Source: a virus (taxonomy: Duplodnaviria; Heunggongvirae; Uroviricota; Caudoviricetes). Taken from it: DNA of 17,726 bases. The position numbers and the translations under genes are program-made. Positions 11,940 to 14,746 of this stretch are shown one piece after another; the first letter of the stretch is position 1; each line of letters starts with the position of its first letter. Location: the IMG/VR virus record IMGVR_UViG_2778261034_000021; one strand, written 5' to 3'. Below the pieces are notes generated by a model. The model searched no databases. It saw only the letters and a program-made list of their open reading frames with translations, and was not told the DNA's origin.

Positions 11940-12093
11940 TGTTAGCGATACACATATCAATGTAGATAAATATGTATTGTGGTTAAAGTTTGTTCGACTG
12001 GTTGACGAATTCGTGAAATCCCCTAAAGATTAGGTTTACAAAAATAAAATTTTGCGTAAAGATGAGCGGAGTTTTAAGAGAGAGGGATACCTT

Positions 12094-12744
12094 ATGCCGT
12101 CTGAACAGAATCTCCAACCGTGTTTTGAAATCAATCCTTGTTTGGATGAAAAATCTGTTATCAATCTTCTTCAGCAATTTGCTAACGTACTTGGCGAATT
12201 ATGGTTCCATCGCCATGAGTATGATGATAACTGGATTAATGGATGTAGGGCCTATGGATGGATAAAAAACTTTCTTGTAAAAAATCATAAAAAACTCAAA
12301 GGAGTGGCGATTCTTTCAACACCTCTGAATTTTGTGTTTACCCTGAACAGGGTGCCGTTACAGTTTGTGACCGATAAACTGGATTCACCAAAAAAGAAAC
12401 ATCGCTTATGTAAAAATGATGTTGAGTGTCGTCAGTTATCTCTTTTTGAAGATGATGTTAATTTTGAACATGATGTTACATGGCGTGTTCTGGCTGAAAA
12501 ATTACCATCTGCAAATAAAAAAGATGAAGATATTGAACCTCCAACGTGGCTTTTAGCCCTGATAGGTTTTGATTCATCAAATAATGTAGTGAGTAGATAC
12601 GAATTGGTGTCTAAAGTCCATGCTCCAGTACAAGCAGCTAATACTGACGTATTGCCAGAGGCCGTGGAAACACCACCGCTGAATTTGCAGCGGCGTGTTA
12701 AGAATGCGAAAAAAGCAGATAGTGATAAATATGGAACTATTTGA
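12094..12744 (+). CDS. Unknown protein (216 aa), first gene of an AT-rich two-gene cargo operon; candidate toxin/effector partner
   Basis: ORF-track frame 12052..12744 (TTG), trimmed to the ATG at 12094 with GAGGGA about 6 nt upstream. AT-rich codon usage unlike the flanking genes. Its 3' end overlaps the next gene by 14 nt. No motif I can recognise. Confidence 0.6.
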   Translation: MPSEQNLQPCFEINPCLDEKSVINLLQQFANVLGELWFHRHEYDDNWINGCRAYGWIKNFLVKNHKKLKGVAILSTPLNFVFTLNRVPLQFVTDKLDSPKKKHRLCKNDVECRQLSLFEDDVNFEHDVTWRVLAEKLPSANKKDEDIEPPTWLLALIGFDSSNNVVSRYELVSKVHAPVQAANTDVLPEAVETPPLNLQRRVKNAKKADSDKYGTI

Positions 12745-13852
12745 TTCTATAGGTAATTATCGTGGTGACTGCTTAAAATTAGCTCGTCAGGCTAAAGGGG
12801 TTACGGGCGAAGAGCTTGCTACTGCTTTGGGGGTGACTCGGCAATTTATAAACAAGTTAGAGCGTGGTTATCCCCCTTCATCTCAGATGTTGACAGCTCT
12901 TGCAGATTATCTGGATGTTAAAGAGTCGTTTTTCTTCACTGGAAGGAAATCACCATTAGACAGCGAGAACTGCCATTTCAGAAGCAAGAGATCAAGGACG
13001 CAGTCCTTAACTAATAGTATTCTGGCTCGAGCTGAAATTTTGGAGCAGTTTGTAAAGTGTTTGGAAACAGAAATAGTTCTTCCAGAATTGAACTTTCCTG
13101 ATACGTCCGGATTACCTTTGAACTCCGATGAAGATATTGAAAGAATTGCCGAGGCCTGTAGAAGGTATTGGGGTTTGGGGCTGGGACCGATATCTTCAAT
13201 GGTTAATTTCGTGGAAAGTATTGGGGTTGTTGTTGCTCATGTATCTGGCGTGGATGATCGTATTGATGCGTTTACTATTAATAGTAAACGCCCATTGATA
13301 ATTAGAAATTCCGCGAAAAAGAGTGTGTGTCGATTTCGCTCAGATCTCGGTCATGAACTGGGGCATCTTGTTTTGCATGAAGGGATTATAACAGGGGATA
13401 AAATTACAGAACATCATGCGGATTATTTTTCGAGCGCATTCCTTGTACCTAGAGTTTCGTTCGTTAATGAATTTCCTAAAATGCGAGGATCGCATCTTGA
13501 CTGGAATGCACTAATTAATTTCAAAGAACGATGGAAAATCAGTCTTCGCATGTGTATTTATCGTGCTACGGTTTTGGGGCTGATTACGCCACAACAAATG
13601 AGAACGGGATTTATCCATCTAAATAAAAGAGGGACGATTAAAGGAGAGATGGGGGATGAGTTAATCCCTGAGGAAAAACCTCGCTTACTTTCCTGTGCAG
13701 TTGAATTGCTGGATATATCTTCTTGGAAGCAGATACTGGATATGTCGGGAGTGAGGGAACGCTTTGTTTCCAAAATGTTTGGAATAAGGCGCACACATGA
13801 TGATATATCGAGTAATATTGTGCCTCTTTATAGATACAAAGACTTTGGTTAA
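12731..13852 (+). CDS. Fused XRE-family HTH + ImmA/IrrE-type zinc metallopeptidase (COG2856-like, about 373 aa)
   Basis: N-terminal HTH (GVTGEELATALGVTRQFINKLERG) and a central HExxH zinc-binding motif (SDLGHELGHLVLHEG). The start could instead be the ATG at 12704. Overlaps the upstream gene, which suggests translational coupling. Confidence 0.8.
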   Translation: MELFDSIGNYRGDCLKLARQAKGVTGEELATALGVTRQFINKLERGYPPSSQMLTALADYLDVKESFFFTGRKSPLDSENCHFRSKRSRTQSLTNSILARAEILEQFVKCLETEIVLPELNFPDTSGLPLNSDEDIERIAEACRRYWGLGLGPISSMVNFVESIGVVVAHVSGVDDRIDAFTINSKRPLIIRNSAKKSVCRFRSDLGHELGHLVLHEGIITGDKITEHHADYFSSAFLVPRVSFVNEFPKMRGSHLDWNALINFKERWKISLRMCIYRATVLGLITPQQMRTGFIHLNKRGTIKGEMGDELIPEEKPRLLSCAVELLDISSWKQILDMSGVRERFVSKMFGIRRTHDDISSNIVPLYRYKDFG

Positions 13853-14031
13853 AATCATAATGGGTGCTTGAGGCTATCTGCCTCAGGCATGAACACCAAA
13901 AGGCAGATAGAGAAAAGCCCCAGTTAACATTACGCGTCCTGCAAGACGCTTAACATTAATCTGAGGCCCAATCTATGCTTCACAAACGTAGGTTAGCCTC
14001 TTACGCGCCGAAAGGCAAGGAGAAGCAGGCT

Positions 14032-14187
14032 ATGAAGCAGCAAAAGGCGATGTTAATCGCCCTGATCGTCATCTGTTTAACCGTCATAGTGACGGCACTG
14101 GTAACGAGGAAAGACCTCTGCGAGGTACGAATCCGAACCGGCCAGACGGAGGTCGCTGTCTTCACAGCTTACGAACCTGAGGAGTAA
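14032..14187 (+). CDS. hok: Hok/Gef-family type I toxin (51 aa) with an in-frame Mok-like upstream extension from 13975
   Basis: Translation MKQQKAMLIALIVICLTVIVTALVTRKDLCEVRIRTGQTEVAVFTAYEPEE has an N-terminal transmembrane helix and the conserved Hok C-terminal pattern. AAGGAG lies 9 nt upstream of the ATG at 14032. Confidence 0.8.
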   Translation: MKQQKAMLIALIVICLTVIVTALVTRKDLCEVRIRTGQTEVAVFTAYEPEE

Positions 14188-14255
14188 GAGACCTGGCGGG
14201 GGAGAAATCCCTCGCCACCTCTGATGTGTCAGGCATCCTCAACGCACCCGCACTT

Positions 14256-14278
14256 AACCCGCTTCGGCGGGTTTTTTG
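14256..14278 (+). terminator. Rho-independent terminator at the hok transcript 3' end
   Basis: CCCGC-TTCG-GCGGG hairpin (14258-14271) followed by a 6-T run. Confidence 0.6.
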
Positions 14279-14462
14279 TTGCGCGCTGAATGCGCAGGGT
14301 GAAAAATAACCATATATTTGATTATATACACAACAAAAAATAAAAGTCATTGTACCTGCACATTAAATAATCAAATATACGGCGTGAAATAAATATTTTT
14401 CAGATTAATATTTTTGTCTCTATGTGGATATAACCGTTTGTACTTATAAACTCGGAGGCATC

Positions 14463-14675
14463 GTGGAAAAAATAAAGAAACTATTTAGTTGCAAATACGC
14501 AGTCATACGTCGTGATGACCTGTCAGTTATAGTCGAAATGGATTACTTCCCTGAAACCCCAAAATCAATGATGTATCGTAATGGTCGAAAGGCAATTTTT
14601 TTACCGATGAGGGTAAGTGACATTATGGGAAATGATAAACTGCTGGATGAATTGCGAGTCAGAGCATCCTGTTAG
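14463..14675 (+). CDS. Hypothetical small protein (70 aa, GTG start)
   Basis: ORF-track frame 14424..14675. GGAGG at 14454-14458 sits 4 nt before the in-frame GTG at 14463. Preceded by an AT-rich promoter-like region. Function unknown. Confidence 0.4.
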   Translation: MEKIKKLFSCKYAVIRRDDLSVIVEMDYFPETPKSMMYRNGRKAIFLPMRVSDIMGNDKLLDELRVRASC

Positions 14676-14746
14676 TATTGGCATTAATTCTGGTATACTA
14701 CATAACGGGCTGAACACCCATTCTACTGCGCCAGCGGAGAACTACG

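Follow-up and report, generated by a model that had tools for sequence, protein, structure and literature searches.

The DNA analysed here, referred to as the window, is a stretch of 17,726 nucleotides (nt) from IMG/VR record IMGVR_UViG_2778261034_000021, to which all coordinates below refer. It covers the left half of an Escherichia coli prophage of the Rac-like lambdoid type, integrated at ttcA, with the gene order intR-xisR-ralR-recT-recE-kilR, repressor, cro-like gene, ydaT, replication genes, DUF1627 and DUF977, followed by the interval under study (positions 11713-14746) and then by DUF1367, DUF1364 and DUF1133. Because PHROGs labels DUF977 as Ren-like, DUF1367 as NinB/Orf-like and DUF1133 as Q-like, the interval corresponds to the ren-ninB junction of phage lambda, which agrees with the original prediction for this DNA that the locus lies between the replication and nin modules. 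The three elements named in that prediction, a two-gene operon at 12094-13852, a Hok coding sequence at 14032-14187 and an open reading frame (ORF) at 14463-14675 (orf70), were all confirmed. We consider it likely that Rac-like prophages exchange cargo by recombination at this interval, in which two variable slots (slot 1, 11713-13861, and slot 2, 14286-14746) lie around a semi-fixed hok/sok unit; in the window, slot 1 holds the RosmerTA operon and slot 2 the candidate antirepressor gene orf70. The features on which the argument depends are as follows.

11275-11712, plus strand: left anchor, DUF977/Ren-like, the last gene of the replication module (PF06163, E = 7.6e-30; PHROG 142, 'Ren-like exclusion protein'), covered in 17-25 of the 27 loci described below.
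11709-11939, plus strand: orf76, the first element of slot 1, a short, internally deleted form of a modular gene of 180-200 amino acids (PHROG 27745).
11940-12093, plus strand: AT-rich leader preceding the RosmerTA genes; a palindrome (TTGACGAAT/ATTCGTGAA) lies at 12002-12017.
12094-12744, plus strand: rmrT, the RosmerTA toxin, a predicted soluble alpha/beta protein (PADLOC RmrT, E = 1.4e-18).
12731-13852, plus strand: rmrA, the antitoxin/regulator, with an N-terminal XRE helix-turn-helix (HTH) domain and an ImmA/IrrE M78 zinc peptidase domain (PADLOC RmrA PDLC03943, E = 5.7e-107).
13827-13855, plus strand: promoter-like TTTATA-17-TAAAAT in the 3' end of rmrA, at the position of the native hok promoter (9/12 matches).
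13862-14279, plus strand: hok mRNA unit of the hokW/sokW family, comprising leader hairpins, mok/hok frames and terminator (Rfam RF01794).
13862-13873, plus strand: 5' tac element of the hok mRNA.
13913-13983, minus strand: putative Sok-like antisense RNA (coordinates transferred by alignment from the sokW annotation of phage 933W).
13975-14187, plus strand: mokW-like frame of 70 amino acids containing the Hok coding sequence (PHROG 251, 'MokW-like host killing'; mokW/hokW annotation of 933W).
14032-14187, plus strand: coding sequence of the Hok toxin, 51 amino acids, Hok/Gef membrane peptide family (PF01848, E = 1.2e-23).
14237-14249, plus strand: fbi element of the hok mRNA.
14256-14279, plus strand: intrinsic terminator of hok, a 7-bp stem (14256-14273) containing 5 G-C pairs, then a T run.
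14286-14746, plus strand: variable slot 2, made up of a 177-nt AT-rich leader, orf70 and a 71-nt spacer up to the start codon of DUF1367.
14463-14675, plus strand: orf70, a real coding gene of 70 amino acids and candidate antirepressor, its GTG start lying 5 nt after a GGAGG.
14747-15346, plus strand: right anchor, DUF1367 (irsA/NinB-like), the first gene of the nin-like module (PF07105, E = 2.1e-97; PHROG 319), covered in 27/27 loci.
7694-8113, minus strand: DicA-like immunity repressor of 139 amino acids without an S24 domain (NCBIfam DicA, 57 bits, below the cut-off).

The interval was compared with that of related prophages by means of 80 fetched IMG/VR contigs whose DUF1367 protein was at least 96% identical to that of the window; 50 of these also had the upstream DUF977 gene and thus both anchors. 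A coverage profile was built from 27 full-length IMG/VR loci chosen by the same DUF1367 identity, and occurrence was surveyed in 5426 complete E. coli genomes. The sampled loci are partly related to each other and are not phylogenetically independent. The interval was bounded by the conserved DUF977 and DUF1367 genes and its content differed between relatives: with fillings defined as distinct at 90% reciprocal coverage, 33 distinct fillings were found among the 50 two-anchor loci, and the spacing of the anchors ranged from 1716 to 4914 bp. The replication genes were covered in 17-25 of the 27 loci, the orf76 region in 3-8, the RosmerTA segment (11950-13750) in none, hok in 21-24 and orf70 in 3, and the stretch from DUF1367 through the Q-like gene was covered in all 27. 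The boundaries were sharp and recurred at the same nucleotides across loci, and the G+C content of the two-gene operon was 0.35-0.44 versus 0.50-0.55 in the flanks. The predicted combination of a variable locus with conserved flanks was therefore borne out on alignment to related loci, and the same gene content at this position in all relatives, with no break in composition, was not what was found.

In the genome survey, the whole interval and the RosmerTA segment were each present in 31/5426 genomes and the orf70 segment in 175/5426, and 4817/5426 had at least a portion of the interval or of its flanks, counting the hok unit. Of the 30 complete genomes that matched best, 27 had prophages 99.9% identical to the window over 11700-15000, and the carriers of the full interval included several O157:H7 or O103:H2 strains, with cattle, humans and mice among the sources. 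The interval shares its position between the replication genes and ninB with the lambda ren-ninB junction, where accessory, non-essential genes are likewise tolerated; lambda, however, has only ren at the junction, whereas the site studied here holds multigene defense systems and a type I toxin-antitoxin. Cassettes would be swapped by homologous recombination in the conserved flanks, namely, DUF977, hok and DUF1367.

The hok/sok unit behaves like a semi-fixed spacer between the two variable slots and not a cargo module on a par with its neighbors, being present in 74/85 loci. Its leader matched Rfam family RF01794 at 13862-14037 with 118.8 bits (gathering score, 59), and the unit had 93.5% nucleotide identity to hokW/sokW/mokW of phages 933W and VT2-Sakai. 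With these members of the plasmid R1 hok/sok family it has in common the Hok protein, an in-frame mok, the tac/fbi pairing and the terminator; hokW of 933W lies near the right end of the genome, whereas the hok of the window lies in a nin-proximal slot with its native promoter replaced by the 3' end of rmrA. In both the minimum-free-energy and the centroid folds of 13862-14279, the segment at 13862-13873 paired with approximately 14237-14249 (z = -7.9), a modeled pairing of 5' and 3' ends that corresponds to the tac-fbi lock typical of hok mRNAs. On the minus strand, TTGCCT-17-TAACCT was seen by eye upstream of Sok, and no site passed the promoter scan. By analogy with the family, the stable folded hok mRNA would be silenced by the unstable antisense Sok RNA, and the outcome would be post-segregational or transcription-shut-off killing. 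Rfam also returned a match to IsrK, a Salmonella Gifsy-1 small RNA, at 14196-14277 on the plus strand (30.5 bits; gathering score, 50), which spans the 3' end of the hok mRNA plus the terminator and probably stems from the terminator hairpin; the matches to isrK, c4-a1b1 and rsmX were all below their gathering scores and were disregarded.

Homology to the other loci starts exactly at 13862 (GGGTGCTTGAGG, the 5' end of the hok mRNA) and stops at the terminator, near 14275-14285. In nearly all other loci, hok +1 is preceded by TTGCGG or TTGGCG, 17 nt, TAGAAT and TGCTGC, and the native promoter stretch reads TTGCGG...TAGAAT-TGCTGC-GGGTGC. This promoter was absent from the window and from the other RosmerTA-bearing loci, in which the 3' end of rmrA abuts hok +1. 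The promoter-like site at the end of rmrA stops 6 nt upstream of the 5' end of the hok mRNA, and no terminator was found between rmrA and hok. Since RosmerTA has been inserted exactly at the start of hok, either this surrogate promoter or read-through, or both, must drive hok in the window. Counting against this account of the promoters, the scan of the interval gave 6 sites, with 7.6 expected by chance. The proposal that each module has its own promoter and/or terminator thus held for the terminator of hok (14256-14273), the only convincing terminator of the interval, and was not supported by the promoter scan, by the unterminated rmrA-hok junction or by the loss of the native hok promoter. 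Because that promoter has been replaced and a terminator between rmrA and hok is absent, the RosmerTA and hok modules are transcriptionally entangled and not autonomous; in this sense, the RosmerTA cassette interferes with its neighbor, having taken out the hok promoter. Within the interval, the two strongest promoter-like sites (10/12 and 9/12) were located at 14321-14403 on the minus strand in the orf70 leader; they point toward the hok terminator and may be chance matches in AT-rich DNA.

Slot 2 behaved as a unit, its leader, orf70 and spacer occurring in the same loci (21, 22 and 22 of 85, respectively), and at least 9 alternative fillings were found among 60 loci. The alternatives included Rem-like ORFs of 57-95 amino acids, a 375-bp AT-rich type and PDC-S42, as well as, read only by motif or by eye, a Fic/Doc-like gene (HPFxxxNKR motif) and an apparent insertion sequence element. 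The 375-bp AT-rich type (contigs L018, L022, L046 and others) was the commonest filling of slot 2; it has no ORF of 40 amino acids or more, goes with particular repressor classes (RacR-like, 158 amino acids, and XH987-like, 139 amino acids) and may have an RNA or a very small protein as its product. We regard orf70 as a real coding gene because a homologue at 73% nucleotide identity differed from it at 12, 6 and 32 first, second and third codon positions, respectively, with the frame and the stop codon intact. The family is narrow, the members for which a source is named being from E. coli and Shigella, and orf70 had no match in Pfam, PADLOC or NCBIfam; its only match was PHROG 1813, a family without an assigned function. 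A stretch comprising hok, orf70 and DUF1367 was also seen at 97% identity in phage PP818812.1, whose recorded host, Actinobacillus pleuropneumoniae, was unexpected.

The occurrence of orf70 followed that of the immunity repressor, which is encoded 6-8 kb upstream. The repressor segment was present in 162/5426 genomes, close to the number for orf70, and in the genomes found in both sampled match lists the two were always on the same record and 6-8.5 kb apart. In the DUF1367-anchored sample, orf70 was present in 5 of 6 loci with the repressor of the window and in 0 of 33 with another repressor. When loci were anchored on the repressor, an orf70-family gene was present in 33/35; among loci anchored on orf70, the repressor was found at 98% identity or more in 30/38. 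Moreover, a repressor variant of 84% identity was paired with an orf70 variant of 57% identity in 11/12 loci. Repressor class and slot-2 class were concordant in 23 of 24 DUF1367-anchored loci (permutation mean, 14.8; P ≤ 5e-5), although the P values for this association are upper bounds on its significance because the loci are not phylogenetically independent. The claim that the interval carries three independent modules was accordingly not upheld: hok/sok is nearly constant and has lost its promoter to RosmerTA, and orf70 tracks the repressor.

Small antirepressors that inactivate small, non-cleavable repressors of the DicA/RacR class have been described in the Gifsy prophages of Salmonella, where the antirepressor gene has a GUG start and lies between dinI and irsA, the latter being the DUF1367 gene, after a terminator and approximately 1.3 kb past the replication genes (Lemire et al. 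2011, PMC3121763). Like the dinI-gfoA/gftA-irsA loci of Gifsy and the slot-2 gene of E. coli phage Rac, which GenBank record MN652886 annotates as 'rem, prophage antirepressor', orf70 is a small gene with a GTG start immediately upstream of irsA, after a terminator and approximately 1-3 kb past the replication genes, in a slot with immunity-specific content, and its would-be cognate repressor is small, DicA/RacR-like and without a cleavage domain. A literature search on the Rem antirepressor found nothing. The Gifsy locus includes dinI and is controlled by LexA, whereas the locus studied here has neither dinI nor a LexA box; the comparison with GfoA and GftA was by description only. Since position, size, GTG start and immunity specificity fit, and a LexA box and similarity to Rem are lacking, we tentatively propose, with somewhat less than even confidence, that orf70 is a small antirepressor of the non-cleavable DicA-like repressor. 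It would then belong with the phage's own immunity system, acting as GfoA and GftA do in Gifsy. More broadly, we judge it on balance probable that orf70 has some functional link to the immunity system, as opposed to being cargo that moves freely.

Several observations weigh against an antirepressor function. No CTG-N10-CAG site was present within 13850-14750, and LexA control of orf70 was therefore rejected; homology of orf70 to the Rem-like slot-2 proteins was also rejected (hhalign probability, 0.2%), even though the N-terminal motifs resemble each other by eye. The co-variation has exceptions: in XH987, an orf70 of 94% identity accompanies an unrelated repressor, and in C41, the same immunity region (98.4% nucleotide identity) accompanies an orf70 of 66% identity. 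Because many of the loci are related, shared descent could also account for part of the association. These points favor the alternative that orf70 is an independent moron, the third of the interval, such as a small anti-defense or exclusion protein, whose association with the repressor is due to lineage descent. That explanation, which also has on its side an AT-rich, sharply bounded cassette of its own, the lack of a match to any known antirepressor family and the phylogenetic non-independence of the sampled contigs, falls only a little short of an even chance. Against it, the association outlasts swaps of the intervening genes: among the 35 repressor-anchored loci, the DUF977 type of the window (at least 90% identity) was retained in 12 and the DUF1627 type in 16, but the more distant orf70 was retained in 33. 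The other repressor classes, moreover, each have their own slot-2 type, as the 23 concordant loci of 24 attest, and slot 2 is the known position of the antirepressor in the Gifsy prophages (PMC3121763).

A wider and equally tentative possibility, to which we give about one chance in three, is that slot 2 is the antirepressor slot of the whole Rac/Qin/Gifsy-type group and that orf70 founds a new, immunity-specific, LexA-independent antirepressor family targeting the repressor at 7694-8113. The hotspot would then sit between the halves of a split immunity system, and swaps of cargo would have to keep the pairing of repressor and antirepressor. orf70 may supply the so far missing antirepressor of one class of non-cleavable DicA-like repressors and, if it does, would explain the induction of such prophages, including those in Shiga-toxin-producing strains. 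It was also seen that the repressor of the window and those at L086:9172-9633 and L088:3623-4042, which are otherwise unrelated, share the C-terminal motif (L/V)N(E/P)xQxxLLxLFxxLPxSE, which could be a dimerization or an antirepressor-binding surface.

The fillings found elsewhere support the reading of the interval as a variable defense-and-addiction hotspot. PADLOC and Pfam matches to the larger proteins identified IetA plus IetS (Ietis), AriA plus AriB (PARIS), a type II methylase plus endonuclease, a cytosine methylase plus an OLD/ABC-type ATPase, an AbiLi-like ATPase, PD-Lambda-2_C plus cll, BstA-like proteins, PDC-S42, a NACHT NTPase (Pfam), a capP-like M78 peptidase, QueH, a caspase-like C13 peptidase, an HSDR_N nuclease-like protein and an NA37 protein. 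Several fillings matched no defense model, and the annotated E. coli genomes gave the same pattern of varied defense cargo. The commonest single filling of slot 1 (8/50 loci; L050, L058, L061 and others) was the homologue of QueH, an epoxyqueuosine reductase; it is a nucleoside-modification gene and not a recognized defense system. Hotspots for defense genes in prophages are an established concept for P2 and P4 (PMC9122126; Vassallo et al. 2022, PMC9519451). As in those hotspots, conserved flanks surround one or two alternative defense systems, and the families in common include PARIS, AbiL, restriction-modification and parts of PD-Lambda-2; the site described here differs in being lambdoid, in its location at a Ren-like/NinB-like junction, in being split by hok/sok and in a slot 2 that tracks the immunity type. 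A literature search on the ninB variable region, which did not cover all recent work on E. coli prophage defense, found nothing. The parts of the interval are thus of known kinds (RosmerTA, hokW/sokW and a prophage hotspot), and what is new is that the site has two slots, that the RosmerTA cassette has displaced the hok promoter and that orf70 is coupled to the repressor type.

We also considered whether the variability might be ordinary lambdoid mosaicism, with no defense hotspot and with cargo that amounts to random accessory phage genes. Other parts of the window were equally variable, the immunity region at 7600-8350 being covered in 3-4/27 loci and the DNA beyond 16300 in approximately 1/27, and many fillings were small ORFs without an assigned function, or QueH. 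Against this stand the recognized defense families, which were matched by PADLOC or Pfam in at least 11 of the 33 fillings (a plain tally within this slot), the sharp boundaries that recur at the same nucleotides and the presence of RosmerTA in the same slot in other genera. Mosaicism by itself is therefore an improbable explanation, and the richness of the relatives' fillings in recognized defense systems favors the defense/addiction hotspot that had been predicted.

The cargo of slot 1 in the window is, as judged from its protein families, a RosmerTA system. RmrA matched the PADLOC RmrA profile along its full length and contains HTH_3 (PF01381, E = 5.8e-13) and Peptidase_M78 (PF06114, E = 5.6e-13) domains with an HELGH motif, and its gene overlaps rmrT by 14 nt. 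The resemblance to published RosmerTA systems (Millman et al. 2022, bioRxiv 10.1101/2022.05.11.491447; Ernits et al. 2023, PMC10440598) extends to the phage-borne, overlapping two-gene operon, the antitoxin with an XRE HTH domain and an ImmA/IrrE zinc peptidase domain with HExxH, the toxin without a known domain and the PADLOC matches for both proteins; it does not extend to the predicted RmrT protein itself, which is soluble and without a transmembrane segment, whereas RmrT of Gordonia phage Kita is membrane depolarizing. The RmrT subfamily (PDLC03929/PHROG 5786) is small, with 7 clusters in a word-indexed search of 5.8 billion proteins and 126 clusters at 50% identity, all of approximately 200 amino acids, in an exhaustive profile search. 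Homologues with 39-58% identity were found in Proteus, in Tenebrionicola and in an unidentified bacterium (locus L248); in every case an overlapping RmrA gene came next, and RmrA of the window was 58% identical to the Proteus partner of one of them. In Proteus and Tenebrionicola, the pair occupied the same slot, directly upstream of the DUF1367-Q-lysis genes, in prophages whose replication and immunity modules are quite different from those of the window; the pair of L248 was outside any prophage. RosmerTA was not found in 50,697 phage records, and a search of plasmids gave only two partial matches, with 70% identity, to an XRE regulator.

A nearly identical RosmerTA cassette (99.6%), with the same RefSeq accessions for RmrT and RmrA, was present in the corresponding position in the prophage at ttcA of strain IGC_EcoliInv_1.1, the evolved invader strain of Frazao et al. 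2019 (PMC6731689). By its position, this prophage is KingRac of that study, an active phage that moved between strains in the mouse gut (PMC6731689); its recombination module, repressor and slot 2 differ from those of the window. In published RosmerTA systems the antitoxin is essential, toxins vary and protection against some phages is conferred (bioRxiv 10.1101/2022.05.11.491447; PMC10440598), and a deletion of rmrA was unobtainable in the system of Millman et al. (bioRxiv 10.1101/2022.05.11.491447). By extension from the family, RmrA would repress the operon and hold the RmrT toxin inactive, and infection by a sensitive phage would free RmrT and abort the infection. The leader with its palindrome is a possible promoter/operator; because no consensus promoter within 11940-12093 reached the scan threshold, we only infer the promoter and operator of RosmerTA. 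Defense by the RosmerTA of the window is predicted from family membership. A point against a defensive role is that phage Nef still lysed KingRac lysogens, although this was one spot assay with one phage (PMC6731689).

The remaining alternative, that rmrT-rmrA is a regulatory module of the prophage in which an ImmR/ImmA-like HTH-protease switch serves induction or excision with RmrT as an accessory, can draw on the M78 peptidase domain of RmrA (the ImmA/IrrE domain of antirepressor proteases), on weak matches of RmrA to the capP and capH regulator models and on a match below the cut-off to the NCBIfam 'spr1629 family repressor/antitoxin' but is very improbable, given that the cassette, present in just 1 of 35 same-immunity prophages and 31/5426 genomes, must be dispensable for the phage life cycle, that the pair also occurs outside prophages (L248) and in Proteus prophages with a cleavable S24 repressor, that the match of RmrA to the RmrA profile is full-length (E = 5.7e-107) and that published RosmerTA systems act as toxin-antitoxin defense (Millman 2022 preprint; PMC10440598).

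The preferred reading of the interval as a two-slot cargo site makes DUF977 and DUF1367 a usable anchor pair for harvesting known and candidate defense systems from a prophage family that is among the commonest in E. coli, parts of the interval or its flanks being present in approximately 4800 of the 5426 genomes. The short gene orf76 at the left edge of slot 1 was flagged as a partial pseudogene by RefSeq, yet the same short form recurs in contig L029; its longer relatives share its first 10 or so and last 60 or so residues, and the middle that it lacks differs between phages.

Elsewhere in the window, the DNA at 16300-17726, downstream of the Q-like gene, was nearly unique (approximately 1/27 related loci) and may be a second cargo site. 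The position after Q is where Shiga toxin (Stx) phages carry stx. Within this segment, RefSeq annotates a tRNA-Met and a DUF6645 protein of 648 amino acids; the tRNA-Met, of 71 nt, is at approximately 16327-16397 according to RefSeq in an identical prophage, and ARAGORN found no tRNA in the window. The immunity region at 7600-8350 (repressor plus cro-like gene) and the segment at 8950-9400, the 5' half of the first replication gene, which was covered in approximately 7/27 loci, are ordinary lambdoid mosaic breakpoints.

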